Positions 45,825 through 62,889 of a stretch of 64,000 bases of DNA are shown piece by piece. Below the pieces are notes generated by a model. The model had not been told where the DNA came from. It saw only the letters and a list, made by a program, of their open reading frames with translations, and did no database searches. Within the stretch, counting starts at the first letter, position 1. Each line of letters opens with the position of its first letter. The translations under genes and the position numbers were made by a program. The stretch is from an uncultured virus (IMG/VR IMGVR_UViG_3300042540_000426) (taxonomy: Duplodnaviria; Heunggongvirae; Uroviricota; Caudoviricetes): IMG/VR virus record IMGVR_UViG_3300042540_000426; one strand, given 5' to 3'.

Positions 45825-46259
45825 TTAAACGCGTGTTATGCCACGTGGGTCTTCGACCGTCGCTTCTACTTGGTCGTCGTTAATCAAGCGAAATTCCTTG
45901 CCGTGAATCATGATTCTGGTACCCGTATACGGGCGAGTAATCACGAAATCGCCTTCTTTACACCACGCGCCTTCAGGAAACTTTTCAGGGTCTTTGTAGG
46001 CATCTGGTCCAAGCTTGACTACAAACAAGACCGGGGAAGTAATTTCCTCGATTTTTACCGTCTGGTCAGACTTAGCGATCCCACTTTCGTAGGTGTCGCC
46101 TGCGTCAACCAAGGCGCACAGCAGTCGCCAACCTTTGGGGTCGGGTATTGCTTTTGCCTTTTGCTCGGCTTGTTCATACTCATGATCCACTTCTGGGGCT
46201 TTAAATACGCCCGGCGGCAGGATTATTTCTTTTTCCGGAACTGCTATAGCTTCACTCAT
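45825..46259 (-). CDS. groES: GroES-like co-chaperonin
   Basis: PKGWRLL...VVKLGPDAY...WCKEGDFV...YTGT...FRLINDDQVEA. Confidence 0.8.
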   Translation of the reverse strand: MSEAIAVPEKEIILPPGVFKAPEVDHEYEQAEQKAKAIPDPKGWRLLCALVDAGDTYESGIAKSDQTVKIEEITSPVLFVVKLGPDAYKDPEKFPEGAWCKEGDFVITRPYTGTRIMIHGKEFRLINDDQVEATVEDPRGITRV

Positions 46260-46458
46260 CGTTAGCCTTCTCTATGTTTTCAGCGAGGTCAAGTAGGTGA
46301 CGCTCTGCATAGGCTAGACCTCGAATAACCCCGCAAAGCTCTTTATAGGCCGCATGGTCTGGGCATGCGCCCGTAGCCAAGTCGTCCGTAAAGTTGTTCA
46401 TATCGGTGCGAATTTTGTTGCGCATCGCCTCGATAAAGTCCATAACAATTAAGTCCAT
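46252..46458 (-). CDS. small helical protein
   Basis: YKELCGVIRGL; between portal and GroES. Confidence 0.7.
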   Translation of the reverse strand: MDLIVMDFIEAMRNKIRTDMNNFTDDLATGACPDHAAYKELCGVIRGLAYAERHLLDLAENIEKANDE

Positions 46459-46461: not shown

Positions 46462-48861
46462 TTACTCCTTCGTTGGTTTTTTAGTTTCTTGTAGTTTTGC
46501 TGCCCGGTTCTTGGCATCTTCAATTACCTTGATTTGCGCATTCATACCCGCAAGGCGCTCTTTAGACTGTATTTCTTGCTCTTTTAGCCTGATCTCGTCG
46601 GCCTTAGACGCCGCGTCCATCATGAGCTTCTTCTCCTTGATCTCAGTCTCTTTGTTCTTGCGTTGCTGGTCTTGTATTTGAAGCTGTAGGACTGGGTCTT
46701 GAGCGTTCTGTGCAGCTTGTTGCTGAGCAATCATGGCTTGAGACTGCGCCAGCACTTGCGGTGCGGCTTCTGCCATCATGCGGCTAAGTTCTCTCTCCAT
46801 GTCCTCTGGCAACTCGTCTTCCTGATCTGGCAAGGCAAAGCCAAGAGCCTGCTGCATCTTGACACGGTAGGCGTAGCCAACGTGCTCGGCGATATGCGCT
46901 TGCATAGACCCTTGAATTACCGCTGCCTGTGGGTTCTGCCCAATCAGTTGCTGAACAACAGGGTCGTTCATGGCGCTGGTGTGAACCTTGATGTGAGCCT
47001 CGTGATCTTGATACGAGAAGGCTTTTAATGGCTTGCCACGCAGCGCGTTCTGGTTCTCCGAGATCGGGTCGGTTGGCTTCTGATCCTCCTCGAGCGGCAC
47101 TAGCTTGTCCGCATGCTTAATCCCCAACACCTCTAGCATTTGCCTATGCAGCACTGGCATGTTGTAAATCTGCGGAGCCATCTGTGCTAGCTGGATAACC
47201 GCTTGGTACTGTACTACTCGCTGGCTTAGGGTTGCGGCATTTGGGTCTGATACTGGTAATACTTCTACGTTACTGTAGTCAGCCTTCTTAGCGCGTGGTG
47301 TGCCTTCCTCTGGCTCGTAGGTGTACTCGTCGTCTGTGTAATCCCTGATTATTCCCGCTAGCAACTGTAGTTCTTGCTTCATCGAGTAGTGAACGCGGGC
47401 TTGTACCGCACTCATTACTTTTAGGGTTCTTTCGAGGATAGCGAGTGTGGTTCCAACCGGCGCCTGATTGGACATATCCGCTACCTTCATATCCGAGGTA
47501 GCCGCAAAGCGTCTGCCCTCTTCAACGATCTTGTCCATTAAGCCAGACAGAACCATCGACGGCTCTTTGTAGGGTAGCGGAAGGATGTTGTCTCTTATGG
47601 CACCACTACCTACATCCACGTCTCTAAACTCACCCGGGGCGATTGGCGTGTCGTCGCCTTTGATGCGCAATCCTCGGCTTTTTAGACCGCCAGGGAGATT
47701 AGATAAAGTGCCAGCATCGACAAGCTGGCGCATGATACTAGTTGCACTCTTCGCGTAACCACCAATAAGGTGAAATAGTCCAAAGCCATAAGCGCCATAA
47801 CCAGGAATATACTGGTAATGCACAAAATGGTGCCGCTTAAGTTTAAGAGGGTCATCTTCCTTCCAGTTTCTGCGAATTGCTAGGACTTGGTTTGTGCCGC
47901 GGATCATGGTTACTACATATGGCAGACCAATGCCGGTGGCGTTACCTTCTTTATCTTTATCCTCATACCCCGGCAAGTCCAAGTCTACGTGCGCTTCGTA
48001 AATTTCAAAGCGGTCGTCGTACGTTGCAGAGAAACCTGTCTCTTTGTCCTTGCGCTCTTGAATATCGCTGGTGAACTTGCTTGGTTCACCCAAATCAACA
48101 TCACGATAAAACCCTGCATTGATTAGTTTGAGTAGGTCGTTCTTGGTCTTGCGCATCACATGGGTAATGCGATGGCAAGTGTTTATCTCGCTAATCCCGT
48201 AGGGCAAGATGATGTCTTCTGCTGGAATAAACACCGATACTTGGCGCTCTAGGCTTGGGTCGTAGTAGACCTTTTTAAATGCGGAACCGGCTGACGGCAG
48301 GTTCCATAACATCTTTTCGTGCTCAGGGCGGTACTCAGGCATTTTCTCCGTGAGTTGATAGTTCATGTCTTCTTGAACACGCACTGCCGCTTCTTTTTTT
48401 TCAGTTGTTTCTTTACCTATTATTTGCGTTCTTACAGGCCCTTTGGCTGGGAACGTCTCCATGATGGTGTCTGACTGAAAGCGCACCACCGCCTCTGTAA
48501 TCATCGGATGGAACACGCCGCATGCGCCGTCCCATGGCTCTGTTCTCTCCTCGAACTTCAAGCCCAGCAACGTAATACCGTCCTTATACATCTGCTCCCA
48601 GTCTTTGCGGGAAGCCAAATCGTTACTAATATCCTCAGCCAAATCACCCGCCAAACTCTGTATGTCTCCTTCAGACATAACATCCGCAAGGTTCACATCA
48701 AAGTTTTCAGCGTCTTCGCCAGCCTCAATCTCAAGAATCTCTTCGCCCTCAACACTAACTCGTACCGCTTCTGGGTCCTCGATCTCAACCTCAATGTCCG
48801 GCTCGCCCACTAAAGCTTCCAGCCCTTTTGGCGCTTCGTACAAACTTTTCTCTATGCTCAT
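46462..48861 (-). CDS. portal protein (P22-like)
   Basis: 799 aa after terL; GSAFKKVYYD; Q-rich C-terminal barrel. Confidence 0.88.
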   Translation of the reverse strand: MSIEKSLYEAPKGLEALVGEPDIEVEIEDPEAVRVSVEGEEILEIEAGEDAENFDVNLADVMSEGDIQSLAGDLAEDISNDLASRKDWEQMYKDGITLLGLKFEERTEPWDGACGVFHPMITEAVVRFQSDTIMETFPAKGPVRTQIIGKETTEKKEAAVRVQEDMNYQLTEKMPEYRPEHEKMLWNLPSAGSAFKKVYYDPSLERQVSVFIPAEDIILPYGISEINTCHRITHVMRKTKNDLLKLINAGFYRDVDLGEPSKFTSDIQERKDKETGFSATYDDRFEIYEAHVDLDLPGYEDKDKEGNATGIGLPYVVTMIRGTNQVLAIRRNWKEDDPLKLKRHHFVHYQYIPGYGAYGFGLFHLIGGYAKSATSIMRQLVDAGTLSNLPGGLKSRGLRIKGDDTPIAPGEFRDVDVGSGAIRDNILPLPYKEPSMVLSGLMDKIVEEGRRFAATSDMKVADMSNQAPVGTTLAILERTLKVMSAVQARVHYSMKQELQLLAGIIRDYTDDEYTYEPEEGTPRAKKADYSNVEVLPVSDPNAATLSQRVVQYQAVIQLAQMAPQIYNMPVLHRQMLEVLGIKHADKLVPLEEDQKPTDPISENQNALRGKPLKAFSYQDHEAHIKVHTSAMNDPVVQQLIGQNPQAAVIQGSMQAHIAEHVGYAYRVKMQQALGFALPDQEDELPEDMERELSRMMAEAAPQVLAQSQAMIAQQQAAQNAQDPVLQLQIQDQQRKNKETEIKEKKLMMDAASKADEIRLKEQEIQSKERLAGMNAQIKVIEDAKNRAAKLQETKKPTKE

Positions 48862-50444: not shown

Positions 50445-51026
50445 TTACTCGTCGTCTTTTTCTTTAAAATCCGCCTCAACCACGTCGACCGCGCCCATGT
50501 ATTTACTTAATTTATTTTTTATTTTTTCATCTAGCTCTTCGTCGCTGATTTCATCTGTCTTTACAGAAAGCCTTTCTGTAAAGAGCGCCACTTCCGTCAC
50601 CTTACCCAGCATTTCCAAGGCTTTTAGACGTATCCGGGCGTCGGGGTGGTCGGTTTCTTTTACTATTTTGGCTACCGACATACTGCGTAGCTCTTCTGCT
50701 TGCTCGATAAACTTCCACTGGTAGGCAGTAACCATACCAACTGCGCTTTTTATCTCTTCTGGGAGATCCAGTTCGAGTAGTTTTTGTTTGGCGTTGGGGT
50801 TGCCCGTGGTTAGGGCGTTGAATGTGTCGGCGACTTTCTCTTGTTTTGCCCCATCCATTATTTCATCGTCTTCCTCGGCGAGGCTTGCCAGCCACTGGCT
50901 GGTTTTTATCTGCGCGTTTAGCGTCTGTGCTGGGGTAAGGGGGTCTAGTGGGGTGAAAGCGGTATCACCAGAAATTATTTCTGGGATAAAGTCAGCGGCT
51001 GAAGCAGTGACCAAATGCTCTAACAA
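50445..51026 (-). CDS. probable terminase small subunit
   Basis: Directly upstream of terL; RLKALEMLGK; SD AAAGGAG before a TTG start. Confidence 0.6.
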   Translation of the reverse strand: MLEHLVTASAADFIPEIISGDTAFTPLDPLTPAQTLNAQIKTSQWLASLAEEDDEIMDGAKQEKVADTFNALTTGNPNAKQKLLELDLPEEIKSAVGMVTAYQWKFIEQAEELRSMSVAKIVKETDHPDARIRLKALEMLGKVTEVALFTERLSVKTDEISDEELDEKIKNKLSKYMGAVDVVEADFKEKDDE

Positions 51027-51109
51027 AAACTAACTCCTTTGGTTGCGTGTGGAACTCACGATTTTTCCGATTCTACTTTGTTTTTTAGCTGTTGTGTTAT
51101 TATTTTCTT

Positions 51110-51194
51110 ACCGTGCCTATTTCCTTCGTTTGGTGGCGCGGTTCCTTATAGGTAAGTGACTTCATACCCCGGACTAGTTCCGGGGTTTTTTTTT
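51110..51194 (+). ncRNA. candidate anti-RBS small RNA with intrinsic terminator
   Basis: TGtTATTAT at 51095-51103; hairpin presenting TTTCCTTCGTTTGGT; terminator with 9 T; complementary sites at many start regions. Confidence 0.65.
51166..51194 (+). terminator. intrinsic terminator
   Basis: ACCCCGGA-CTAGT-TCCGGGG followed by T9; no U-tract in the minus direction. Confidence 0.85.
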
Positions 51195-51317
51195 GAATAA
51201 GTGGGGTACTAGCGACAAACATATACGTAGTTGGCAGAAAGGTATGTGCGCTTCCTAGATAGCGCTTTTCACGTTCCTACGTACCGCGTTCCCCCGGTCC
51301 ACGTGAAGGACAAGATT

Positions 51318-51362
51318 AGTGTACTGCGTTTTCGTGGGTTTGCAAGTGTCAAGTATTTGACA
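51318..51362 (-). promoter_or_regulatory. possible leftward late promoter with adjacent palindrome
   Basis: Minus strand TTGCAA, 16 bp, TACACT; TGTCAAGTATTTGACA at 51347-51362. Confidence 0.4.
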
Positions 51363-51506
51363 TGACTCGGTGGATTTTTTTACAAAATTTGACAAAAATT
51401 GGTTTTGCGGCTGAGGAATAGTATACGCATACAACACGATACGGCTAACCAAAACGGCTTGGTGGGTATCGGGTGGGGTTCACGCCACGCTGAATCATGA
51501 AGTTCT

Positions 51507-51528
51507 CCACAACAGGTTGTGGTATACT
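51507..51528 (+). promoter_or_regulatory. early promoter with operator-like palindrome
   Basis: CCACAAC-AG-GTTGTGG (51507-51522) overlapping extended -10 TGgTATACT. Confidence 0.6.
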
Positions 51529-51568
51529 GTGGTTGTCGGTAAGGCTTGTAGGGCTTACTGATACAGGT

Positions 51569-51597
51569 AGCCAAAGCCGTTGTGCTTTGGCTTTTTT
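51569..51597 (+). terminator. leader terminator/attenuator
   Basis: AGCCAAAGC-CGTTGT-GCTTTGGCT-TTTTT. Confidence 0.75.
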
Positions 51598-51598
51598 A

Positions 51599-51618
51599 TT
51601 TGGGACATCTGTCCCAAA
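51599..51618. repeat. 20-bp palindrome, copy 1
   Basis: TTTGGGACA-TC-TGTCCCAAA. Confidence 0.9.
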
Positions 51619-51639
51619 CATTTCATAAGGAGTTTCAAT

Positions 51640-52044
51640 ATGTCTACACTATCTAATGCACTCATCACGCTAATCACAGCAGAGCAAGGCTGGAAGAAGG
51701 CTTTGGCTGACGCCCTTAACGGCAAGAAGTTTCTGCCTGAGAAGGCTGTTATTCAGTTAGGTGAAGCCGTTTGCAAGAAGTATGATTGTTTCGTTGACGT
51801 GGCAGAGAATGGTATGTATCGGTTCTACAAGACCGAAGAAGTAAGTAGTGCAAACATTCACGAAGCCGCAAAGAAAATGTGGCAACGCAGGGTTGCACCA
51901 TACCACAACATCACCCGTAATAATCGTGGTGGCGACACAAGTTCTCAGCAAGACGTTGTGCAATCCAAAGCCAAGGTAATCAAGTCTTGGGGCATGAGCA
52001 AGGCTCAGGTGTTGCGTGCTGTTGAGCGTGCTTTTGCCAAGTGA
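51640..52044 (+). CDS. first early protein; start moved to ATG 51640
   Basis: SD TAAGGAG; 134 aa, basic. Confidence 0.75.
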   Translation: MSTLSNALITLITAEQGWKKALADALNGKKFLPEKAVIQLGEAVCKKYDCFVDVAENGMYRFYKTEEVSSANIHEAAKKMWQRRVAPYHNITRNNRGGDTSSQQDVVQSKAKVIKSWGMSKAQVLRAVERAFAK

Positions 52045-52063
52045 TTGGGACAACTGTCCCAAA
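52044..52063. repeat. 20-bp palindrome, copy 2
   Basis: ATTGGGACA-AC-TGTCCCAAA. Confidence 0.9.
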
Positions 52064-52067
52064 CAAG

Positions 52068-52143
52068 TTTGACAGAATTCGTAGGGAAAGGCGAGAGGGC
52101 GCGGCTTCTCTGCGATTCTGTTTATTGTCAAATCCACGCCCTC
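52068..52143 (+). ncRNA. structured intergenic RNA element with pseudoknot
   Basis: UCGUAGGGAA/UUCUCUGCGA (two G-U pairs), ACAGAAU/AUUCUGU; loop GAGGGCG pairs with CGCCCUC next to the SD. Confidence 0.5.
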
Positions 52144-52156
52144 ATAGGAGTTAATC

Positions 52157-52333
52157 ATGTATGAACCATTGTTAGAACCCAAAGTTGTAAAGGTTGAACT
52201 CATGCCTGAGAGTGATGTTATTCAAGGTATGCAGACCTATGAAGTTACCTACGAAGACGGCGAGGTTCGTGGCTTTCTTGCGAACTCATGCGAACAAGCC
52301 ATTGATTTTGCGTATCGCTTTTACTTTATCTAA
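52157..52333 (+). CDS. 58-aa acidic protein (missing from track)
   Basis: SD AGGAG; MYEPLLEPKVV...AYRFYFI. Confidence 0.7.
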   Translation: MYEPLLEPKVVKVELMPESDVIQGMQTYEVTYEDGEVRGFLANSCEQAIDFAYRFYFI

Positions 52334-52342
52334 GGAGTAATC

Positions 52343-52507
52343 ATGTTATCAAACCAAAACTGTTATCTGTTATCACAAGTTGTTGTCAAGAAACCTAAGA
52401 CCAAAAAGGTTCAGCCTGTGCGACCTGTTGTAAAAACACAGCCCATGACCATGCAAGAAGCGTTTCTCAAAATCAACGCCCTTGACTACATCAAAAACAA
52501 GTTTTAA
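52343..52507 (+). CDS. 54-aa basic protein (missing from track)
   Basis: SD TAAGGAG; MLSNQNCYLL...YIKNKF. Confidence 0.7.
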   Translation: MLSNQNCYLLSQVVVKKPKTKKVQPVRPVVKTQPMTMQEAFLKINALDYIKNKF

Positions 52508-52533
52508 CTAACCAACAAACGAAAGGAATTACC

Positions 52534-52737
52534 ATGAAATTCAACCCAAACAAACACAGCGGTGGCGGTGTTGTATTCATTGATGTCTTTACCAAGAAAC
52601 CTGTAACGGATTCGTGGTGTAAAGAGTATGAGTCTGCCAAGAAGTTTTGGATACGCCACTATCACAAAGACCCTAACATAGCCATGCGCCCTGTCGCTGA
52701 TGTTAACTTCTTCTTCATGCGTCATGGTATCTTCTGA
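52534..52737 (+). CDS. hypothetical early protein
   Basis: SD AAAGGA within the CAAACGAAAGGAA motif. Confidence 0.7.
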   Translation: MKFNPNKHSGGGVVFIDVFTKKPVTDSWCKEYESAKKFWIRHYHKDPNIAMRPVADVNFFFMRHGIF

Positions 52738-52739
52738 CC

Positions 52740-52763
52740 TGTTTGGGACACTTGTCCCAAACA
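52740..52763. repeat. palindrome, copy 3 (extends to 24 bp)
   Basis: TGTTTGGGACA-CT-TGTCCCAAACA. Confidence 0.9.
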
Positions 52764-52769
52764 TATTGT

Positions 52770-53090
52770 GGAGAACGGGGTTTTGGGGGCATCTGACAAA
52801 CGTCCACCTTTTAACCCATAGCGGACACCATGTTGCCGCCCCCAACCCGTTGTGCGTTAAGGCTCCGTCCAACTTTCGGTATACTAGTATATATAAATAT
52901 ATATTCTTATCTCTCTAATAATAAGTAAGAAAAAAATGGACGGAGTTGCTTCACTTAATTTTTTTCCTTTGATAATTTTTTATTTTTGATAGACGTGTAT
53001 ACACAATTTGTATCAAACCCAATTACAATAAAGCCTACACGGCGGCTATCCATACGTCCACCTTGGGTTAAACAGTGGACATTTCATAAT
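52770..53090. other. candidate replication origin
   Basis: About 320 bp non-coding; AT-rich core; CGTCCA/TGGAC repeats in both orientations; flanking inverted repeat. Confidence 0.45.
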
Positions 53091-53104
53091 TTAGGGTGAC
53101 GGAA

Positions 53105-53683
53105 ATGCACGAACAGCACGACAAACAACAGAATAAAACCTGCACAATGTGTGGCGAAACAAAACCACGCAACGAATTCAAGCGACGCTTAACTAAGCGA
53201 CAATCAGCCGCACTACTACGCAGACCCTCAATCTCAACCGCACTCACCGTCATCTCTACTCGTTGTAAAACCTGTTGGGCGCAAACCAAAAGCCGAAAGC
53301 CACTCACCATCAAACAAATCAAGAGCAAGAAAGCGAGTGGTGATTTAAGGGGTGTGGTAGCAGACATACTACTCACGCAACGCAAACAAAACGCCAACGC
53401 AATCAAGAGCAGAGTCATGAAAGAGTATTGGGAAAAGCAAAGAACCGCACCTATCAAACAACTAGAACAAAACTTACGGCAACAAGTTGCCAAATACAAG
53501 AACAGATACCACGCAACAAAATCAAAAGACCCACATCACGCCCTGCTAGCGCAACATAAAAACAACTACGAGATGGCAAGGCGGGTAAGAGATGAGTTGT
53601 TGGCGAGAGCAAAGGCAGGTGAAGTGTTTGATGTTGATGTTTTGATTGATGTTTATTTTAAGAAAGGAGTAAGTGATGTTTGA
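53105..53683 (+). CDS. basic Zn-finger protein
   Basis: CTMCG...RCKTC; start uncertain (53096 GTG or 53105 ATG). Confidence 0.65.
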   Translation: MHEQHDKQQNKTCTMCGETKPRNEFKRRLTKRQSAALLRRPSISTALTVISTRCKTCWAQTKSRKPLTIKQIKSKKASGDLRGVVADILLTQRKQNANAIKSRVMKEYWEKQRTAPIKQLEQNLRQQVAKYKNRYHATKSKDPHHALLAQHKNNYEMARRVRDELLARAKAGEVFDVDVLIDVYFKKGVSDV

Positions 53684-53771
53684 TTGGACTGAGAAGTATG
53701 GTTGGGTATTGATTTGTTTTACTTTTATTTTCATGGCGTGTCAGTTGATACGCTTCTTTATAGGGGGGTGA
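53676..53771 (+). CDS. 31-aa membrane peptide (missing from track)
   Basis: SD AAGGAG; MFDWTEKYGWVLICFTFIFMACQLIRFFIGG. Confidence 0.55.
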   Translation: MFDWTEKYGWVLICFTFIFMACQLIRFFIGG

Positions 53772-53772
53772 T

Positions 53773-53871
53773 ATGACTGAGTTTTTTAAGCAGTGCTTTA
53801 GGTGTGGCAAACGAGGGGTTAGTCGTTGCCATGCTTGTTCGAAAGCGGAGAGAATTCTCTCCAACAAGTAG
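53773..53871 (+). CDS. 32-aa micro Zn-finger (missing from track)
   Basis: SD GGGGGTG; MTEFFKQCFRCGKRGVSRCHACSKAERILSNK. Confidence 0.5.
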   Translation: MTEFFKQCFRCGKRGVSRCHACSKAERILSNK

Positions 53872-53915
53872 CACAAACCACTTTACAAACAAACGAAGAA
53901 AGGTAGGTTAGCAGT

Positions 53916-55331
53916 ATGCAGACAATCCTAGAAGTATGGCGTGACTACAACGCACGCCGCCTTGACCGCCCAACAATGTGGTCAAGAGATGAGGTGCGCC
54001 AAGTTACACGCGACACCATGATTCGCAACATCAACAAAAGCAACGCAGCCCCATCAAATCAACGCCGACCCGCAAATTGGTATGGCGAGAATGGTCGCAA
54101 CATTCGGCGTGAGTTTGGTAGGGGTTTCGCTTCGGCTATTCAAGACAAGGACTACGAGGAGTGCATTGACTTGCTTGAAGCCACTGCGTTTTGGGCAATC
54201 AAAGAATACTCCACAACAGATTGGGTAGACTTAATCAGAACCAAATGCGACACAGACTATATCCACTCCTGTGATGATTGCGGACACATTGACCACGCAG
54301 ATAGGGGTTCGTGGGCATACGACGATAACTGGATATGCGACTCCTGCATTGAGGACAACTATCGGTGGTCAGACAACCGCGAAACCTACATCACAGTCGA
54401 TGACTGGCATGAGGAGAATGACGAGCAAGAGGAAGACGAGGATAGGGAAGACTACATCATCGGCGACTACCACGATAGCAAGAGTGTGGTCGGGCATATC
54501 CCATCTAGTTACGACGAGCGTAAGCCTAGGATTTTATTGGGTATGGAGTTAGAGGTCGAGGTCAACGACGAATACAGTCGCACTGACAAGGCGCAAGAAC
54601 TCTACGACTCAATCAAATACACCACCGCCAAAGACGGCATCACCCATCAATACTGTTTCATCGAGCATGACGGCTCACTCAATCGTGGCTTTGAGATAGT
54701 TACGGGGTATACGGGTCTTGATGTTCACGCCAAGCAACTCGAGTTCTTCAAGAAACCATGGCGGGGTGTGCGTAGCCATGACACTCGGACTTGTGGGCTT
54801 CATGTGCATATCGACAAGCGTGGGGTCAGCCTGTTTCATGCGTGCAAGATGGTGTTCTTCATCAACGACAGCAATAATCAGAAGCTAATCAAGGACATAG
54901 CGCGTCGGGCTAACGCAGACTACGCACAGATTAAGAACAAGAAGGCGTCGTATCAATGGCTCAAACAAGCCAAGAAAAGCCACAACCCACTTAACTGCCT
55001 CAACGAAGAACGGCGTGAGGCGTTGAACTTTCAGAACGAGGACACCATCGAGTTCCGCTTGTTCAAGGGCACGCTACGCTACGAAACCATCATGGCTTGT
55101 CTTGAGTTCACCTATGCCACATGGTTCTTCACACGGGACACAGGGGTCAACGAGTTGACCACACCCAACTTCATCAACTTCATATGCCAACCCCAAAACA
55201 GGGACTCAACCAAGTTCCTGCGTGCATACCTCAAGGAGAAGAACTACTCGCTACCCAAACTAGCCTTGGTCAAACCCAACCCCCGCTTTGATGACTACAA
55301 ACCACAGCCACCCGAGTCACTCGCCGCGTAA
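53916..55331 (+). CDS. putative amidoligase (COOH-NH2 ligase)
   Basis: GMELEVE, HDGSL, GFEIVT, TCGLHVH, TIEFRLFKGTL. Confidence 0.85.
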   Translation: MQTILEVWRDYNARRLDRPTMWSRDEVRQVTRDTMIRNINKSNAAPSNQRRPANWYGENGRNIRREFGRGFASAIQDKDYEECIDLLEATAFWAIKEYSTTDWVDLIRTKCDTDYIHSCDDCGHIDHADRGSWAYDDNWICDSCIEDNYRWSDNRETYITVDDWHEENDEQEEDEDREDYIIGDYHDSKSVVGHIPSSYDERKPRILLGMELEVEVNDEYSRTDKAQELYDSIKYTTAKDGITHQYCFIEHDGSLNRGFEIVTGYTGLDVHAKQLEFFKKPWRGVRSHDTRTCGLHVHIDKRGVSLFHACKMVFFINDSNNQKLIKDIARRANADYAQIKNKKASYQWLKQAKKSHNPLNCLNEERREALNFQNEDTIEFRLFKGTLRYETIMACLEFTYATWFFTRDTGVNELTTPNFINFICQPQNRDSTKFLRAYLKEKNYSLPKLALVKPNPRFDDYKPQPPESLAA

Positions 55332-55366
55332 CAACCACAAACTAAATCAAACGAAAGGAAAAGCAT

Positions 55367-56386
55367 ATGTGTTTATTAGTTACCCAATCCGCAACTTCTC
55401 CACAACTTACTGCCAAATGGCTGACTGACTTTCATGAGTCCAACGCTGATGGTGTCGGTGTCATGTATGTAGAGAACGGCGAGTTAATCGTAGAGAAACT
55501 GCTACCCAAGAACCCCTCCGACTTAATAACTTTCTATCACGCCCACATCGAGGGGCGCGACTGTGCGTTTCACCTACGCATGAAGACCCATGGGCATATC
55601 GACATGGAGAACTGCCACCCATACGAGGTGCTGAATAAGCAAGAGCATGGCATTGACCTATGGCTGATGCACAACGGCGTGTTGCATACCGACAACAAGG
55701 CAGACATTACTAAGTCCGATACATGGCATTACATTCGTGACTACCTACGCCCCATGCTTAACAACAACCCTGACTTTGCCTTTCACCCCGCCTTTGCTGA
55801 GTTGATTGGTGAGCATATCGGCACAGGCAACAAGTTCGTGCTGATGGACAACCTAGGTAGGCAGGTGATTATCAATGAAGAACAGGGTGTGTATTGGGGT
55901 GGGCGTTGGCTGTCCAATACCTACGCTTGGTCTGCCCCTGCGGGTATTTCTAGTTCTGTTGTTGATGATGTGGCGGACATGAAGTTAGCGGTTGAGCAAA
56001 TCGCCACAGACCCAGTGGTTTACAAATACACAGGGCACTACCCATACGCATCATGGGACTACGACGGCGAGATTTATGGCGGTTACAACTCAACCTACAA
56101 ATCTGCATACAACGACCTTGACGCACAGGCTGAGGAAGACCTTGAGATTGACGACATCTTGATTGAGTTGGAGTTGGCAGGGTTTGCTCGTGCGGGTGGG
56201 CTAAGTCGCAGACAAGCGGGTGAGTTCGTGCGTAAGTTTGGTGTTGACGCGTTTTACGAGGTGTCTTACATGGTGATGGACGAAGCCATTGATGAGGATT
56301 GGTATGTGCGCATCATGTCTGATTTTGCAACGGCACGCGAGTGCTTCCCATGGTTGGAGAAAGAGAGTAAGCAAGTATGGAATTGA
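55367..56386 (+). CDS. class II glutamine amidotransferase
   Basis: N-terminal MC, NADGVG, HLRMKTHG, NCHPY, MHNGVL, SDT. Confidence 0.88.
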   Translation: MCLLVTQSATSPQLTAKWLTDFHESNADGVGVMYVENGELIVEKLLPKNPSDLITFYHAHIEGRDCAFHLRMKTHGHIDMENCHPYEVLNKQEHGIDLWLMHNGVLHTDNKADITKSDTWHYIRDYLRPMLNNNPDFAFHPAFAELIGEHIGTGNKFVLMDNLGRQVIINEEQGVYWGGRWLSNTYAWSAPAGISSSVVDDVADMKLAVEQIATDPVVYKYTGHYPYASWDYDGEIYGGYNSTYKSAYNDLDAQAEEDLEIDDILIELELAGFARAGGLSRRQAGEFVRKFGVDAFYEVSYMVMDEAIDEDWYVRIMSDFATARECFPWLEKESKQVWN

Positions 56387-56502
56387 TACTGATTGATGTT
56401 GGTAGTTGGCTGATAGCGATTGGTCTGACGCTTGGCTTCATTGTGTTTGGGGCATGGGCTATCTCTGTTTTGATTGATGTCTTTTTGGGAGAAAGAAAAT
56501 GA
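56377..56502 (+). CDS. 41-aa membrane peptide (missing from track)
   Basis: MELILIDVGSWLIAIGLTLGFIVFGAWAISVLIDVFLGERK; overlaps both neighbours. Confidence 0.55.
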   Translation: MELILIDVGSWLIAIGLTLGFIVFGAWAISVLIDVFLGERK

Positions 56503-56729
56503 GTGACTTAGTTTTATTGATAGCAATTACATGGGCGTGCCTGATGACGGGCATAGCCCTGCATTTCCACAACGCGTATCACAAATCAATGCAAGGCGGT
56601 GCGCGTCTGTTGCAGATGCTAATAGGTCTAGGCACAGGCTCAGCCAAGATTGAGAAGAAAGCCGATGGCTCAGTTGTATTTGAAGATGATGAACACAAAA
56701 TCGTGATGATGAAAGGAGAACAAGCATGA
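56499..56729 (+). CDS. small membrane-anchored protein
   Basis: Hydrophobic N-terminus; ATGA overlaps. Confidence 0.65.
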   Translation: MSDLVLLIAITWACLMTGIALHFHNAYHKSMQGGARLLQMLIGLGTGSAKIEKKADGSVVFEDDEHKIVMMKGEQA

Positions 56730-57235
56730 ACCCAGCAATAAATGAAATGCCAGTAACACAAGAAGAAGACGAGGCGATGGACGCCTTGTGTCGGTTGGCA
56801 ACAGGCAGACCCATGTTGGAGATAAACCCAACGACACAAGACATACTCAACAACATAGCCATACCACAACCCACGCCCGACATTGGCACAATCATCAACA
56901 CTATCTGTGCACAACTACAACTCTTGACTACGGTCATCAAGCAAAACCAAGGGAATTCCCTGAACGCGGAAGACCAATCCCTGCAAGAGTGCGTGAACCT
57001 CACGCTACAACAAGCGGGGTGGTTCAAAGAGATGGTCAAAGAAGTTATTGATGATGTGGATATGGAATATGAAATTGAAAGTGCCGTTGAGTCTTACTTT
57101 AGCAACTCGTTCAGCCTTGATGACCATGTAGATATTACCGCAGAGGTTGAGAACAGAATCGAGGAGATTGTTGAAGAGCAACTAGCAGACATAGTTTCAG
57201 ATAAGTTGCGCAACTTGCGTATTACATTTGACTAA
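56726..57235 (+). CDS. acidic hypothetical protein
   Basis: SD AAAGGAG; D/E-rich C-terminal half. Confidence 0.7.
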   Translation: MNPAINEMPVTQEEDEAMDALCRLATGRPMLEINPTTQDILNNIAIPQPTPDIGTIINTICAQLQLLTTVIKQNQGNSLNAEDQSLQECVNLTLQQAGWFKEMVKEVIDDVDMEYEIESAVESYFSNSFSLDDHVDITAEVENRIEEIVEEQLADIVSDKLRNLRITFD

Positions 57236-57244
57236 GGAGGGCGT

Positions 57245-57697
57245 ATGCCAAGCACGTGTAGGTTTATGGATTTATACAAAGGCGACAACGAGTGGCTCGC
57301 AGGAGAAAAACCAACTGACCCGCAAGAGTTAGGCGAGTGGCACATTGCGTGGGCTAAGTTGCGAAAAGACTGCGAGCATCAAATACTTTTTGTTGAAGAG
57401 ATGTATAACAACCAAGAGTATGGCGACAAACCCGAATGGGTTGACGTGACGCTAAAAGATGAGGGCGTGCTTTTATTCAAAATGGCACGCGGTGTTGTCA
57501 AATCAATCGACGCAAACTCAATTACATACAGCAATGAAAAATATTTTCACGCCACTGCAAGTGATGAATTTAGGATTGGCTTTTCAAAACTTAGCATAAG
57601 CGAACATGGTGCATTTGTAACGCTGTATGAAAGCGATAGCGCTGAAGAAATAGAAGTAAACATCACCGAGTTTTTTAACCAAACGATAGGAGAGTAA
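57245..57697 (+). CDS. hypothetical protein
   Basis: SD TAAGGAGG. Confidence 0.7.
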   Translation: MPSTCRFMDLYKGDNEWLAGEKPTDPQELGEWHIAWAKLRKDCEHQILFVEEMYNNQEYGDKPEWVDVTLKDEGVLLFKMARGVVKSIDANSITYSNEKYFHATASDEFRIGFSKLSISEHGAFVTLYESDSAEEIEVNITEFFNQTIGE

Positions 57698-58677
57698 TGA
57701 TGGTAATGACATACCAACAAGTAGTAGAGAAGTTCAACGACATCAAGAAGCCACCACGCAGTAAGAAATACAACGAGTTTCAACGCCCACTACGCAGGGT
57801 CTCAGAGAACTGGCTGATGTTGCAGAAAGACCCACACAGTTACGTATTCAAACTGTGCAACACAGAGGCGGTGCGGTATCTCGAGCCTGAGTGCAACGAC
57901 AAGTTCCAAGTGGCGTTGCGTGGCATGACAAGCACCTACGACGAGCAACAGATGTGGCGCTATACACGCTTTCATAGTCACAACAAGTTGGCAACAATAC
58001 ATGGCACACACGTTATAGTTCCACTCAACCCCGCATATACGCAACAGGGCAAGGACTTTAGTGCGGTGCTGACATTCACCAACGCAGGGCTACTGATACC
58101 CGAAGAGTCATGGCACGCAGACATTTACTGCTTGCGTTCTACTGACGAGGACAAGGCGCGGCGCAAGAAACTCAAGGTTGACCTCGAGGCATACATCACG
58201 CTTCAGCAGTTCAAATTACAAAGCCTCAAGGAAGAAGCCAAGATTACATACAGGCTCGGTCGTCCGTTTGCATCGTCGGCGCTGTCGCATGGTGCTCGTG
58301 CCAAGATGTTCACATTCCTCAACGAAGACCCGCTACCACTCGACTTGCCTGAGTTCGCCATGATGTTTGACGAGGTGGCTCGTGATTGCTTCAACGTGTT
58401 GGCAAGTAAGCGGGTATACAACGTCAATCAACGGCTCTTGTATGGTGGTGGTTGGAACAGTAACCCAAGCGACGAGGCGGACAAGCGTGAGCAAGCCGAG
58501 GACATAGCCCACGAACTGACGCCCGAGGAGTTCAAAGAAAGTCTCACCAACAAGTTGCTGACATTGGCAAATATCAACAAAGGCAGTAACTACGTGCCGA
58601 TTGGACAGTTTCCCAACGCGTTGCCGAGAACTTATTACTTAGTTGATAAGGGTAATTCCCAAGGAAAGGGGGTGTAA
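57697..58677 (+). CDS. hypothetical protein
   Basis: 326-aa ORF, SD AGGAG. Confidence 0.75.
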   Translation: MMVMTYQQVVEKFNDIKKPPRSKKYNEFQRPLRRVSENWLMLQKDPHSYVFKLCNTEAVRYLEPECNDKFQVALRGMTSTYDEQQMWRYTRFHSHNKLATIHGTHVIVPLNPAYTQQGKDFSAVLTFTNAGLLIPEESWHADIYCLRSTDEDKARRKKLKVDLEAYITLQQFKLQSLKEEAKITYRLGRPFASSALSHGARAKMFTFLNEDPLPLDLPEFAMMFDEVARDCFNVLASKRVYNVNQRLLYGGGWNSNPSDEADKREQAEDIAHELTPEEFKESLTNKLLTLANINKGSNYVPIGQFPNALPRTYYLVDKGNSQGKGV

Positions 58678-58704
58678 AGTCGTAGCAGTTTCTATAAATT
58701 AGTA

Positions 58705-58713
58705 TGTTATACT
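58705..58713 (+). promoter_or_regulatory. extended -10 promoter for the AAA/VWA operon
   Basis: TGtTATACT in an AT-rich intergenic gap. Confidence 0.5.
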
Positions 58714-58756
58714 TTCTAAAAAGCAGTAGTAAATTAAACCAAACGAAGAGGAATAT

Positions 58757-59872
58757 ATGCAATTACTAAACTTCAAGCAAGTAAAGCAAGCCGTTAAAGC
58801 AGTTGGTCACAAGCGCACCATCATCATTCAAGGTGAGAATGGTGTCGGCAAGACTGGTGTATACCACGCACTCGAGCAAGACCCCGACTTCGCAAACCAT
58901 GTGGGTGTCAAGCTTGACTGCACGCAGATGTCAGATGGTTCTGTGTGGATGCCCGACATTGACAGAGATGCAGGGGTCAGTAGGGAACTACCAAATGAAA
59001 GATTTGGGGTGAGCAAACTCAATCAGAAAGGTGTCAATGGTGCGCGCCCATCTCTCGTGTTTCTTGACGAGATTGCCAAGGCAAAGCAATACATCAAAGA
59101 CGTTCTTGCGCCGATTGTTTATGAGCGACGTGTTGGTAACTACGAGATGGCTGAGGGTAGCGTTGTGTTCTGCGCAACTAACTTGGCAGTTGAGGGCTTG
59201 GGCGATTCTATCCAAGCGCACTTACGCAACAGGCTAGTGTTCCTCACCATGCGCAAACCAACCCAACCCGAGTGGCGTGAGTGGGCTATTGATGCGGGTA
59301 TCAACCCCATCGTGATTGCTTGCACCGACGAGAACCCACATTGGTTCGACTCGTTCCTTGACTACGAGGTAGGTGGCAAGTATGCAGGCAAAGACCAAGC
59401 ACGTGAGAACGACCTCATCTTCAACCCACGCTTGTCGCAACAGGCATACATCACACCACGCTCGTTGCACTCAGCTAGCGACATCGTCACAGAGAAAGAT
59501 GGCTACGACACCGACACATTGCAAGCGCTACTCACAGGCACTATCGGTCGTGCCGGTGCTGAGATTATGGGTGCGTTCATTCGGTTCGGTGAGGATACCC
59601 CTGCGTTTAGCAAGATCGTTTCCTCTCCAAGCACTTGCTCTATCCCAAGCAATCCTGTGGCGCAGATTATCACCGTCTTGAAATGCGTTACACAAACAAG
59701 CACGAGGGAAGAAGCCGAGGCTTGCACCGAGTATGTCATGCGCAACCGCAGAGAACTGCAGTCAATGTTCTGCAACAACATCGCCAACTCAACACGTGCG
59801 TCGTTGTTTGTAACAGTCAAGCCGTTCCAACAGTTGATGCAAGACAACCGCATTTATTTCGCAACTAAGTAA
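58757..59872 (+). CDS. MoxR-like AAA+ ATPase
   Basis: GENGVGKT, LVFLDE, CATN, HLRNR, TPRS. Confidence 0.88.
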   Translation: MQLLNFKQVKQAVKAVGHKRTIIIQGENGVGKTGVYHALEQDPDFANHVGVKLDCTQMSDGSVWMPDIDRDAGVSRELPNERFGVSKLNQKGVNGARPSLVFLDEIAKAKQYIKDVLAPIVYERRVGNYEMAEGSVVFCATNLAVEGLGDSIQAHLRNRLVFLTMRKPTQPEWREWAIDAGINPIVIACTDENPHWFDSFLDYEVGGKYAGKDQARENDLIFNPRLSQQAYITPRSLHSASDIVTEKDGYDTDTLQALLTGTIGRAGAEIMGAFIRFGEDTPAFSKIVSSPSTCSIPSNPVAQIITVLKCVTQTSTREEAEACTEYVMRNRRELQSMFCNNIANSTRASLFVTVKPFQQLMQDNRIYFATK

Positions 59873-59881
59873 GGAAAGAAC

Positions 59882-61093
59882 ATGAGTAAAACATGGGAAA
59901 AATTAGATGCACACAACCGCATTATTGCGGTGCACGTAGACATCAGCAACAACGCAGACTTCGCAGGGTTGTCGGGTGTCGTTTACGTGGGCGACATCAA
60001 GTTCGTTACAGAGTGCCCGACTGCAGGCACAGATGGGCGTGATGTTATTTACAACGAGCAGTTCGTCATGGGCTTGACACGCAAGCAGTTGCGCTTTGTT
60101 GTGTTGCATGAGGCTATGCACAAGGCTTTACAACATTGCACCAACTACCAAGCCATCAGCGAGAAGTATCCCTTGCTTACCAACATGGCGATGGATTACG
60201 TAGTCAACGCTACGCTGTTTGAGATTGACCCCAACTTCCAATTCATTGAACGCACCACCGAGCCTGTGCCTTTGTTCGACCCCAAGTATCAGGGGTGGTC
60301 GTTCATTGAGGTGTTGCAGGATTTATTAAAGAATGTGAAAGTAGTTGAAGTAGGCGGTGTTCAGTATGTTGAGGGCGATGGTCAGGGTCAGCCACTCGAC
60401 ACGCATACCTTTGGCAAGCTACCCAAGGATAGCAAGGAAGCCAACGAGAACGGCAGACAGATTGACGACGCACTACGCCAAGGCAAGGTTCTCGCCAACA
60501 AGTTGGCAGGTAAGAGGTCAGCCAACAATCCGTTGGACAAGGCAACACAGAAACGTGACACCAACTGGCGTGAGCATATGCGTGAGTGGATTACTGCCCT
60601 GTGTGAAGGCGACGACTATTCTCGCTTTGCCCCACCCAACAAACGTTTGCTACCACAGGGTATCGTCATGCCTTCGCATTTCTCAGAGGCAACAGGCGAG
60701 TTGATTGTGGCAACCGATACGTCAGGTTCTATGTATGACATCTTGCCTACTGTATTCGGTGAGATTGCTCGTATCTGCGACAACGTCAGACCCGATGCAG
60801 TTCGTGTCATTTGGTGGGACTCAGCAGTATGCGGTGAGCAAGTGTTCAAGCCACATGAATACGAGAAGATTGCAGGCTTGCTCAAGCCTAACGGTGGTGG
60901 TGGCACTTCACCTGAGTGTGTTGTGCAATACATTACCGAGAAGAAGTATCAGCCCAAGGGTATCGTTTGGTTAACAGACGGCTACCTCGACGGCTCTAAC
61001 TCAGAGACAGGCATGCCTGCGCTTTGGGGTGTGGTTGACAACGACCACTTCACGCCCCCCGAGGGCAAAGTAGTTCGCATTTATTCGCAGTAA
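59882..61093 (+). CDS. metallopeptidase-VWA protein (DUF2201-like)
   Basis: TAGTDG, VLHEAMH, MIDAS DTSGSM, GGGGT, LTDG. Confidence 0.88.
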   Translation: MSKTWEKLDAHNRIIAVHVDISNNADFAGLSGVVYVGDIKFVTECPTAGTDGRDVIYNEQFVMGLTRKQLRFVVLHEAMHKALQHCTNYQAISEKYPLLTNMAMDYVVNATLFEIDPNFQFIERTTEPVPLFDPKYQGWSFIEVLQDLLKNVKVVEVGGVQYVEGDGQGQPLDTHTFGKLPKDSKEANENGRQIDDALRQGKVLANKLAGKRSANNPLDKATQKRDTNWREHMREWITALCEGDDYSRFAPPNKRLLPQGIVMPSHFSEATGELIVATDTSGSMYDILPTVFGEIARICDNVRPDAVRVIWWDSAVCGEQVFKPHEYEKIAGLLKPNGGGGTSPECVVQYITEKKYQPKGIVWLTDGYLDGSNSETGMPALWGVVDNDHFTPPEGKVVRIYSQ

Positions 61094-61116
61094 CTTTCTA
61101 ACCAAACGAGGAACTT

Positions 61117-61530
61117 ATGAAACAGATCAGAACTTCTGTATTACATGAAAAAGCATTAACCAACGCAATCAAACTACTCAACGCTATTGGTGCGCAGTAT
61201 GCAATCAAAGACGTAGAGGGTAATCTGCATGGCGACTTGACCGCAGTAAGCAAGAAGAGGAAAGCGCCATCAAAGTATCCGTATGGTTCAATTTCCACAT
61301 ACATCAGACCATACGTTGAGGCGTGCGGGGTAAATCAAACGGTAACTATTCCGATCGGGCAGTTTGATGTTGACCACATCTATGGGTCTGCATCATCTAT
61401 GGCTACTAAGCTGTGGGGTAATGGCTGTCACAAAGTTGGCACGACGACCGACAAGAAAGCCGTTGTTCTTACCCGCACAGAGAAGCTTGACGACCTTGAC
61501 GATTTGTTCTCACAACTAGGGATTAAATAA
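61117..61530 (+). CDS. hypothetical protein
   Basis: SD GAGGA within the ACCAAACGAGGAA motif. Confidence 0.7.
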   Translation: MKQIRTSVLHEKALTNAIKLLNAIGAQYAIKDVEGNLHGDLTAVSKKRKAPSKYPYGSISTYIRPYVEACGVNQTVTIPIGQFDVDHIYGSASSMATKLWGNGCHKVGTTTDKKAVVLTRTEKLDDLDDLFSQLGIK

Positions 61531-62402
61531 TGACACGATACAACATCGACACATGTGCGTTGCTTGTTGAACTAAGTGTTTCACAATGGACTGCTAGGAA
61601 ACTAGACAAGTCCACGACTGAGGAACTTGTGAAAGACAAGAACGCACAAGACAAAGGCGCGGCACGTGTAAACAAACACCTGCTCGCAGGGCGTAGTGAA
61701 CTAGAAGTTATTAACCAATACGTTACAGAGACTCGTGGCTTTGTGTATGACAACACGTTGCCATGGAGTGACTCGGGTATACGCTTGTTGCCAAGCGCTA
61801 AGTTCATGGAGTTTAATGACCAGTTACGAGAACGAGAAGATAAGTTTTACGGACTGGTTCAAGAGTTCGTTACTGTTTACCCATCACTTATTACTGCACA
61901 AGCCATGGCTCTTGGAGATATGTTCAACAGAACAGACTACCCGTCTGCGGACGACATCGCACACCGCTTTAGTTTCAACGTCAACTACATGCCCGTCCCT
62001 GCATCTGGTGACTTTAGGGTTGACGTGGGCAACGAGGCGCAGAAAGAACTGCAAGAGAAGCTAGCCAAGCTTGCCGACCAACGTGTCGAGTCAGCTATCA
62101 ACGGCTTCAAGCAACGGCTTCTCGAGCATCTCAAGCGTATGTCGGACAGGCTAGGTGTTGACGTCATCGCAGGCGAAGCTAGACCACGCAAGTTCCACGA
62201 GACGTTGCTAGAAAATGCCCATGAGTTGTGTGAGTTGGCTGAGTCTCTCAACATCATCAACGACCCGCAGATCGAAGAAGCACGCAAGGCGCTGAAGAAA
62301 GCTATCAACGGCGTTGACATCAAGGACTTACGCAAGGACATGGGTGCACGCACCGAGGTCAAGTCTCAGGTTGATGATATTCTCAACAAGTTTTCTTTTT
62401 AA
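61530..62402 (+). CDS. helical protein (DUF3150-like)
   Basis: WTARKLDK...TLPWSDSGIRLLP...DYP; a type of gene often found near AAA/VWA pairs. Confidence 0.6.
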   Translation: MTRYNIDTCALLVELSVSQWTARKLDKSTTEELVKDKNAQDKGAARVNKHLLAGRSELEVINQYVTETRGFVYDNTLPWSDSGIRLLPSAKFMEFNDQLREREDKFYGLVQEFVTVYPSLITAQAMALGDMFNRTDYPSADDIAHRFSFNVNYMPVPASGDFRVDVGNEAQKELQEKLAKLADQRVESAINGFKQRLLEHLKRMSDRLGVDVIAGEARPRKFHETLLENAHELCELAESLNIINDPQIEEARKALKKAINGVDIKDLRKDMGARTEVKSQVDDILNKFSF

Positions 62403-62411
62403 GGAGGTAAT

Positions 62412-62702: not shown

Positions 62703-62889
62703 AGCCGAAGTATTGAAGCTGATGCGTGAGAACGCGGCGCTATGCAACCTTGAAGCTGAGGTTATCTTGGCTCTCAAAGCTAACGCAGTTGGCGATGAAC
62801 AGATGTTGCAGAATCAAATCCAACAGATCATGCTATGCCTACAACGTATTGATGATGTGCGCAGACGTTACGGCAAGGAGGATGCATGA
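62689..62889 (+). CDS. hypothetical protein; start moved to ATG 62689
   Basis: SD GAGGAG; MPIDEAEVLK. Confidence 0.6.
   Translation: MPIDEAEVLKLMRENAALCNLEAEVILALKANAVGDEQMLQNQIQQIMLCLQRIDDVRRRYGKEDA

Follow-up and report, generated by a model that had tools for sequence, protein, structure and literature searches.

An uncultured phage carries, between its early and its late genes, a predicted small-RNA gene whose 85-nt product (51110-51194, + strand) is probably a trans-acting translational repressor of the early-gene class with multiple targets. The anatomy of the gene, its conservation, strand and structure, its complementarity to early start regions and the co-variation of loop and targets were computed. 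On these sequence grounds the locus can be taken as a genuine phage small-RNA gene that is conserved and had not been catalogued before, and there is good comparative evidence that the RNA would read the ribosome-binding sites of the early class.

The window, i.e. the whole stretch of 64,000 nucleotides that was analysed, covers most of a phage genome of ~64 kb and has a G+C content of 46%. The phage belongs to a clade of uncultured aquatic phages with genomes of ~61-64 kb. The record nearest to the window, G001, is an identical fragment. Early or replication-type genes run rightward (51246-64000 and 1-8147), and structural and lysis genes run leftward (8134-51026). We scanned 74 window proteins against PHROGs and 28 of these also against Pfam. 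Among the early-type proteins were a PD-(D/E)XK nuclease, an SNF2 helicase, a DUF927 primase, an amidoligase, an AAA ATPase, DUF2201/VWA and DUF3150 proteins and a GATase-like protein, the gene of which (start 55367) gave a weak match to Pfam GATase_4. The leftward genes encode a 3191-aa polyvalent protein, tail fibres, an endolysin, the major head protein (gene start 43733), the portal and TerL, and begin with a TerS-like gene (start 51026, - strand; the match is weak). No phage RNA polymerase was found among the window proteins scanned with PHROGs and Pfam. The small-RNA gene lies within the 500 bp that separate the TerS-like start from the first genes running rightward, and this gap contains the following features:

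51110-51194, + strand: predicted small RNA of 85 nt, its 5' end inferred from the -10 and its 3' end from the terminator
51093-51103, + strand: predicted promoter, from the sequence, consisting of TGTG, one further base and the -10 hexamer TATTAT (51098-51103); the -35 is weak
51110-51142, + strand: stem-loop 1, from the fold and co-variation, with an 8-bp stem (51110-51117 with 51135-51142) and a 17-nt loop
51118-51134, + strand: seed loop UAUUUCCUUCGUUUGGU, made of the anti-SD core UCCUU and the specific extension CGUUUGG, complementary to early start regions
51142-51149, + strand: second anti-SD motif UUCCUUAU (UUCCUU) in the linker, from the sequence
51166-51194, + strand: intrinsic terminator, from the sequence and a consensus scan, with an 8-bp G+C-rich stem (51166-51186), a 5-nt loop and T9 at 51186-51194
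51070-51075, - strand: putative -10-like hexamer TAGAAT of the leftward late (TerS) operon, with a counterpart in relatives

The arms of stem 1 are ACCGUGCC and GGCGCGGU, with one U-G pair among the eight. The 85-nt RNA folds with a minimum free energy of -28.7 kcal/mol (z -2.86), and it contains no AUG and no conserved ORF. The extended -10, the stem, the loop, the second anti-SD, the + strand terminator with T9 and the lack of an ORF had all been reported in the first-pass annotation, and each was present where that annotation had placed it.

To assess the conservation of the gene, we collected relatives of TerL from viral metagenome contigs. The search gave 597 confirmed matches, from which the best 80, with 73-84% identity, were kept; 69 loci had at least ~600 nt upstream of TerL and were usable for the survey. 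A terminator-ended unit on the small-RNA strand, placed between the TerS/terminase genes and the early genes, was present in 69 of these 69 TerL-related loci. In 64 of them, a pattern search identified an A-run with a G+C hairpin 690-1055 nt upstream of TerL, that is, a terminator opposite to the late genes. In the remaining five loci, read by eye, the unit is present but its U run is interrupted. Together with the window, the 64 loci found by pattern yielded 65 extracted copies, which correspond to 57 distinct sequences and fall into two architectures. In type A, the kind found in the window (24 distinct copies), the anti-SD is displayed in the large apical loop of the first hairpin as (U)CCUUCGUUUGG, or as CUCCUUUCGUUGUG in one sub-lineage. 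In type B (33 distinct copies), the first hairpin is capped by a GCAA tetraloop and is followed by single-stranded (G)CUUCUCCUU. Among type A relatives the loop core CCUUCGUUUG is nearly invariant while the stems vary, and the variants of the loop extension found in the clade include CGUUUAG, CGUUUGAG and CGUUGUG. A second CU-rich motif occupies the linker position in relatives as well, and in four loci (L058, L013, L019 and L021) it repeats the CGUUUG extension.

An anti-SD 5-mer (CCUCC, CUCCU or UCCUU) precedes the terminator in 54 of the 57 distinct copies, against a background of 9.2% of random 60-nt windows from these genomes, and the three copies without such a 5-mer carry UCUCCA. With at least four of five bases unpaired in the MFE fold, the anti-SD is accessible in 51/57 copies. 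The anti-SD is thus the hallmark of this small-RNA family and is common to all of its architectures. Upstream, a TAnnnT hexamer is located 6-7 nt before the first stem in all 57 distinct copies of both types, with TG just upstream of it in 50 of them. The hexamer is TATACT in 25 and TACACT in 14 cases, and TACAAT, TATAAT and TATTAT also occur. This exchange of hexamers between lineages at a constant position is promoter-like behaviour. Several type B copies, which come from more distant relatives, have in addition TTGACC, TTGTAA or TTGTAC 16-17 bp upstream of the -10.

Next, we aimed to determine which strand carries the structure. The helix finder was orientation-neutral, scoring G-T and A-C appositions alike. 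In the helices that it returned, type A stems contained 176 Watson-Crick, 36 G-U and 5 A-C pairs and type B stems 122, 26 and 5, respectively, giving a pooled count of 62 G-U versus 10 A-C on the small-RNA strand. This strong excess of G-U over A-C indicates that the helix is read on the + strand of the window. A covariance model (R1) derived from eight copies of type A yielded 29 matches in a search of 81 sources, all of them on the small-RNA strand; its match in the window spans 51110-51193 (+). In the alignment fitted to this model, 9/9 pairs of stem 1 show compensatory double changes and 87.2% of cells pair. The covariation score was 0.551 compared to 0.201 after shuffling (reached in 0/500 shuffles), with slid partners scoring at most 0.104; being fitted to the model, this alignment is biased towards the structure. 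For comparison, 16 type B hairpins were aligned with MAFFT without such fitting, and their GCAA loop proved invariant. In this alignment 84.7% of cells pair on the small-RNA strand, with a covariation score of 0.848, whereas the mirror structure on the late strand reaches 67.4% and 0.526. Plain MAFFT followed by RNAalifold did not recover stem 1, because variable loop lengths displace its 5' arm. The conserved promoter and terminator (69/69 loci), the stem co-variation and the G-U asymmetry together point to an independent small-RNA gene on the + strand, as the first-pass annotation had suggested.

We also considered a leader peptide encoded on the late strand. A short ORF following an SD-like complement was seen by eye in L024 and L025, and neither its start nor its length nor its frame is conserved. 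Such a peptide is also disfavoured because the G-U asymmetry favours the other strand.

To identify the genes that the loop might recognize, start regions were collected from simple gene calls (the longest non-overlapping ORFs on the proper strand, with starts adjusted partly by SD score), and hexamers were counted without bias in the 28 nt before the start codons of 33 early and 47 late genes. The top non-SD hexamers of the early start regions were AAACGA and CAAACG, each found in 7/33 (p 5e-9 and 1e-7), and each was found in 0/47 late start regions, where UAAGGA and AAGGAG prevail. The lack of CAAACG at late ribosome-binding sites had been noted in the first-pass annotation, and these counts bear it out. 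The heptamer CAAACGA, the match to the non-SD part of the loop (CGUUUGG), stands before the SD of 7/33 early and 0/47 late genes. Loop duplexes of -12 kcal/mol or stronger were predicted in nine of the 33 early start regions but in only one of the 47 late ones. A generic 16S-type anti-SD separated the two classes far worse than the loop did (p 0.055 vs 0.0023). All duplex energies leave aside mRNA structure and the topological cost of loop pairing. The predicted target sites are:

58737-58756, + strand: start region of the AAA ATPase gene (start 58757), the best predicted target and the top site window-wide apart from the RNA's own antisense; -20.8 kcal/mol, 17 pairs, ending 1 nt before the AUG
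57677-57694, + strand: start region of gene 57697-58677; -19.2 kcal/mol, 15 pairs
3695-3711, + strand: start region of gene 3715-4614; -18.6 kcal/mol, 15 contiguous pairs including G-U
3295-3313, + strand: codons 1-7 of gene 3294-3704; -17.5 kcal/mol (-19.4 in the sliding scan)
61100-61114, + strand: start region of gene 61117-61530; -17.2 kcal/mol, 13 pairs
55345-55362, + strand: start region of the GATase-like gene (start 55367); -16.5 kcal/mol, 15 pairs
52515-52529, + strand: start region of gene 52534-52737; -14.5 kcal/mol
26-42, + strand: weaker predicted target, start region of gene 48-353; -13.3 kcal/mol, interrupted duplex
53889-53899, + strand: weaker predicted target upstream of the amidoligase gene (start 53916); -12.9 kcal/mol, 9 pairs, 17 nt before the AUG
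46464-46478, - strand: start region of gene 46252-46458, the sole late start region with strong complementarity; -16.8 kcal/mol, 13 pairs

Seven start-region matches had been proposed before this analysis. All seven exist, including the 15 contiguous pairs before gene 3715, and the sites before genes 57697, 48 and late 46458 come in addition to them. The eight best energies sum to -133.4, compared to a mean of -99.2 (sd 6.9) when CGUUUGGU was shuffled with UCCUU kept, and none of 300 shuffles reached the real value. A sliding scan of both strands, which made no use of gene calls, placed seven of its 12 best sites at start codons once the RNA's own antisense was excluded (58757, 3294, 57697, 3715, 61117, 55367 and late 46458); the other five of the 12 best sites window-wide are not at starts. 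By hand arithmetic, start regions make up ~3% of the scanned sequence, so that ~0.4 of 12 sites would be expected there.

The first-pass annotation had called for a check of seed-target co-variation in related phages. We compared the window with five further contigs of 42-64.5 kb (G002-G006), a set of six genomes that represents perhaps four or five independent lineages and in which the unpaired RNA segments were picked by eye from MFE folds. G003 has the loop of the window, and AAACGA is enriched in 6/44 of its early start regions. In G002 the loop reads CGUUGUG, and it is AACAAC, not AAACGA, that is enriched, in 9/48 early start regions. Exchanging the loop extensions weakened the predicted pairing in both directions (window, -133.4 with its own extension vs -97.6; G002, -161.9 with its own vs -153.2). 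We then shuffled both flanks of the anti-SD core in all six RNAs, with the following z scores for the real flanks:

Window: early -4.27, late +1.62
G002: early -3.00, late -0.34
G003: early -0.34, late +0.49
G004: early -1.67, late +1.25
G005: early -1.32, late +0.42
G006: early -1.76, late +1.67

The real flanks gave stronger early pairing than shuffled ones in six of six genomes, while late pairing was no better and mostly worse; taken alone, G003 shows no significant flank effect. To separate cognate matching from overall stickiness, each RNA was paired with each genome and the 6x6 table was double-centred. For early start regions all six cognate cells were negative (sum -10.2), and only 2/720 column permutations were as good. 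For late start regions all six were positive (sum +3.6), with 704/720 permutations lower or equal. Composition alone would affect both classes alike, and the results therefore indicate selection for early matching together with avoidance of late genes. Loop and early start regions thus co-vary across the six genomes. Among orthologous genes the site is not kept in every genome, which suggests that the target set drifts. These results argue for the pairing with multiple start regions that the first-pass annotation had proposed; its further suggestions, of an immunity or carrier-state RNA, of membership in the P1 c4/P4 CI group and of a protein-binding motif, fared less well, as described below.

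The RNA has the features of a trans-acting anti-SD small RNA, namely an unpaired CU-rich seed and complementarity to multiple starts that goes beyond the generic anti-SD. From these properties we infer a mechanism, including transcription, its timing and the direction of the effect. The RNA would be transcribed by the host RNA polymerase from the TG-extended -10 of sigma-70 type and would end at the strong intrinsic terminator. Given a host-type promoter and no phage RNA polymerase among the proteins scanned, it would probably be made from the start of infection and then accumulate, being compact and terminator-ended. Contigs assembled from RNA libraries of three studies span ~51450-52100 in relatives, with 51110-51194 outside them; such contigs show neither strand nor ends, and RNAs shorter than 100 nt are commonly lost. 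The first hairpin would keep the 17-nt loop open, presenting the UCCUU core and the lineage-specific CGUUUGG. The loop could then pair with extended sites of the form (A)CCAAACGA-AGGA on about 8-10 mRNAs of the early/replication module, among them the amidoligase/GATase/AAA/DUF2201 cluster and two genes adjoining the helicase. The duplex would cover the SD, or in one case the first codons, and block 30S binding. Because the SD itself would be covered, repression appears likelier than activation. Late genes would be spared by their different SD flavour, UAAGGAG. The role might be a delayed shut-off, a limit on dosage or a ceiling on toxic early proteins. As with the early promoters, the small-RNA promoter appears to be constitutive, and a simple late-expressed switch is therefore not indicated.

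In a different reading, the RNA is mainly directed at the host: an abundant anti-SD would mask host ribosome-binding sites, thereby shutting off or reprogramming the host, and its complementarity to early genes of the phage would be of secondary importance. The anti-SD core is indeed the one feature common to all architectures, and bacterial CU-rich small RNAs repress many host genes and can slow growth, according to passages of PMC5688073. Yet a host-directed RNA does not predict flanks that are matched to the phage's own early start regions and mismatched to its own late ones, and we consider this reading unlikely.

A somewhat less likely possibility is that the unit controls the adjoining late operon, by promoter competition, as antisense to a late leader that begins farther upstream or as a leader read by an antiterminator. 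The last of these would resemble the lambda 6S RNA, a short terminated leader that is read through by an antiterminator. The position beside TerS is invariant in 69/69 loci. TAGAAT on the - strand and the -10 of the small RNA stand back to back with 22 bp between the hexamers, and the two promoters may therefore compete. In aligned relatives, late-strand -10-like hexamers (TAGAAT, TATACT, TACAAT, TACACT) occupy the same place, ~40 nt ahead of the TerS start. Distant relatives have their TerS start codon no more than ~45 nt from the small-RNA -10, and this -10 is often the palindrome AGTGTACACT. Control of the late operon, however, leaves the conserved unpaired anti-SD and the flanks that co-vary with early genes unexplained, and predicted pairing between the loop and the TerS start region is weak (-9.8 kcal/mol). 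The terminator, with nine U and a G+C-rich stem, also speaks against it, as does the DNA past the terminator, which has -35/-10-like boxes of its own and in which one module is inverted in some relatives.

Less probable again is a loop that serves as a binding site for a protein (a chaperone, a phage translational repressor or a nuclease guide), which the RNA would titrate or deliver. Invariance of the loop over 10-12 nt would suit such a site, and the U-rich stretches and the long U tail are reminiscent of Hfq-binding small RNAs. Nevertheless, a protein site need not be the exact complement of an mRNA motif, nor change with that motif between lineages. The first-pass annotation had placed such a motif in the leftward late leader; the strand evidence contradicts this version, which is disfavoured since structure, promoter and terminator are all read on the + strand. 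Finally, a bare terminator or insulator between divergent modules with accidental complementarity of CU-rich to AG-rich sequence is very improbable, because, even though any CU-rich sequence pairs with an SD and five of the 12 best sites lie away from starts, it predicts neither the promoter at a fixed distance, nor the co-varying first hairpin, nor the invariant loop, nor the flank-specific matching (0/300 shuffles; 2/720 permutations).

Repression of the early class by the small RNA may be one case of a wider arrangement. In this phage group, and possibly in many unrelated phages, an SD-adjacent 'barcode' would tag one temporal class; a co-evolving small RNA would read the barcode and could shut off the early class, while late genes avoid it. 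We regard this generalization as having a little less than an even chance of being correct. Temporal control in phages is usually ascribed to promoters, sigma factors, antiterminators and a few RNA-binding proteins. Here, all 69 clade loci examined keep the RNA gene, and in the window and five contigs the seed tracks the phage's own early ribosome-binding sites and avoids the late ones. If the RNA represses, it would constitute a compact post-transcriptional class switch with an 'address' that is legible from sequence. The shut-off of early genes would then be amenable to simple reporters, and the barcode would provide a rule by which temporal classes could be predicted in the genomes of uncultured phages, as well as orthogonal RNA/RBS pairs for engineering.

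To see if the RNA belongs to a known family, we searched Rfam. At gathering scores, no match was obtained in the whole window. Below them, RF02837 (anti-hemB, Burkholderia RNA 7) aligned at full length to 51110-51194 (+) with 30.7 bits (E 4e-5; gathering score 49.5), and this alignment has the same boundaries as the predicted small RNA. RF02630 (Hrs12), whose consensus loop contains CCUUCGUUUG, scored 25.2 bits, below its gathering score of 70. RF02278, a Betaproteobacteria toxic small RNA, scored 19.7 bits (gathering score 50); it shares the CU-rich unpaired motif with the phage RNA but not the fold. A search with 12 related loci gave no Rfam match at E up to 0.01. The likeness to anti-hemB and Hrs12 is one of general shape, i.e. 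hairpins and a terminator, and does not imply homology.

A DNA search of known phages gave no match. The nearest cultured phages, DSL-LC04, Pag-Yong1 and HTVC027P (TerL ~50% identical), have a different layout upstream of TerL and no comparable unit there. When bacterial and archaeal genomes were searched with an 18-nt loop pattern, 105 scattered matches came up, roughly as many as chance would give (hand estimate). When 80 of these bacterial and archaeal loci were compared with R1 they reached at most 26.8 bits, versus at least 36 for the phage-locus matches listed, except L073 (27.6) and L002 (26.9). The loop with its fold was thus not found in bacterial genomes, and the 80 loci gave neither a clue to the host nor a prophage copy. 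Among the papers listed in full-text literature searches, none described an anti-SD RNA that a phage directs at early genes of its own.

In working principle, the closest systems are by analogy the bacterial CU-rich anti-RBS small RNAs, e.g. the Burkholderia double-hairpin 'toxic' RNAs. For Betaproteobacterial RNAs of this kind (ncS27), parts of PMC5688073 describe that most predicted interactions fall at the start regions of many genes and that overexpression slows growth. The double-hairpin RNAs of RF02278, ncS27 among them, and the Neisseria NmsR are CU-rich and anti-RBS, like the phage RNA. However, all of these are chromosomal RNAs aimed at host metabolism, whereas the RNA described here is encoded by a phage, at a constant genomic position, and fits a single temporal class among that phage's own genes.

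Among phages, the closest counterparts by analogy are the c4 RNA of P1/P7 and the CI RNA of P4. Both are phage-encoded and trans-acting, with loops that pair with mRNA and hide the ribosome-binding site. They serve immunity in temperate elements, are processed from a longer transcript and act on one operon through two short loop matches. In contrast, the RNA of the window has its own predicted promoter and terminator and about ten dispersed predicted targets, and no lysogeny genes were found: integrase, repressor and excisionase were absent from the 74 window proteins (PHROGs; 28 also Pfam), although a small part of the genome may be missing from the window. The immunity or carrier-state role envisaged in the first-pass annotation thus finds no support. 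Membership in the c4/CI family likewise drew no Rfam match, neither in the window at gathering scores nor in 50950-51750 at E up to 5.

Two further systems recognize start-proximal sequence. Cluster K mycobacteriophages possess start-associated sequences, a conserved short motif just upstream of the start codons of some genes, for which to our knowledge no complementary RNA has been described; the motif found here has a conserved, co-varying antisense partner. In T4, two proteins, the endoribonuclease RegB and the translational repressor RegA, act on early messages as a class, recognizing their SD region and stopping their translation while later genes proceed. The parallel with T4 is functional. 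If the proposed repression holds, the small RNA would be an RNA-based counterpart of RegB and RegA, in which the recognizing agent is an RNA that pairs with an extended SD 'tag'.

The SD motif differed between early and late genes in all six genomes compared, i.e. the window and the five related contigs G002-G006. Late genes preferred UAAGGA(G), whereas early genes preferred AAGGAGAA or the extended form CAAACGA-AGGA. The features discussed below, by position in the window, are as follows.

8134-17709, - strand: 3191-aa ORF, the last of the late block
51288-51324, + strand: GTTCCCCC..CACGTGAAG..ATTAGTGTAC, a module of roughly 37 nt that is conserved
51340-51400, + strand: repeats of TTGACA / TGTCAAA boxes, accompanied by A/T tracts (..TTTGACATGACTCGGTGGATTTTTTTACAAAATTTGACAAAAA..) and conserved in relatives
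51517-51598 region, + strand: promoter-like sequence TTGTGGTATACT, -10 at 51523-51528
about 51540-51560, + strand: hairpin 3′ of this -10
51569-51592, + strand: stem of a second terminator with a T run, from the terminator consensus scan
53916-62402, + strand: consecutive early genes for an amidoligase, a GATase-like protein, an AAA ATPase, a DUF2201 metallopeptidase/VWA protein and a DUF3150 protein

Several genes of the row from the amidoligase to DUF3150 are predicted targets of the small RNA. For the 3191-aa ORF, Pfam gave a single match, to the LPD38 domain, which is linked to large polyvalent proteins. The protein scans of the window turned up no DNA polymerase, and relatives carry an ORF of 586–815 aa in the early region corresponding to the window ends (63946 / 48). 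Thus, a piece of the genome may be missing from the window at these ends.

The stretch from the small-RNA gene to the early genes holds two conserved elements. The module of about 37 nt, found directly past the small-RNA terminator in the related loci L003-L006, L014 and L016, points rightward in the window and is reversed relative to the small-RNA gene in several relatives; possible roles are those of a promoter or a binding site. The TTGACA / TGTCAAA boxes are kept at the equivalent place in L053-L058 too, and may represent early promoters or operators. Further downstream, the first early ORF begins at 51640, past the second + strand terminator. The 51517-51598 region could give rise either to a short second transcript, about 64 nt long, or to a leader that terminates ahead of this ORF. 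In window coordinates, relatives are covered over about 51450-52100 by contigs from the RNA libraries of three studies. Two of these contigs begin at 51450-51455, whereas a probable DNA run extends further left, which hints only weakly at a transcript end.

The small-RNA gene itself varies among relatives. In type B relatives, in which a GCAA-closed first hairpin precedes a single-stranded anti-SD (e.g. L024, L070 and L072), a 10-bp palindrome, AGTGTACACT, includes the small-RNA -10, with only about 45 nt between it and the TerS start codon of the opposite strand. The two divergent promoters, on the small-RNA and TerS sides, may therefore share this single palindrome. In four related loci (L058, L013, L019 and L021) the specific extension of the seed is repeated in the second CU-rich motif of the linker (AUCCUUCGUUUGA or CAUCCUCGUUUGA), so that the extended seed is present twice in each small RNA.
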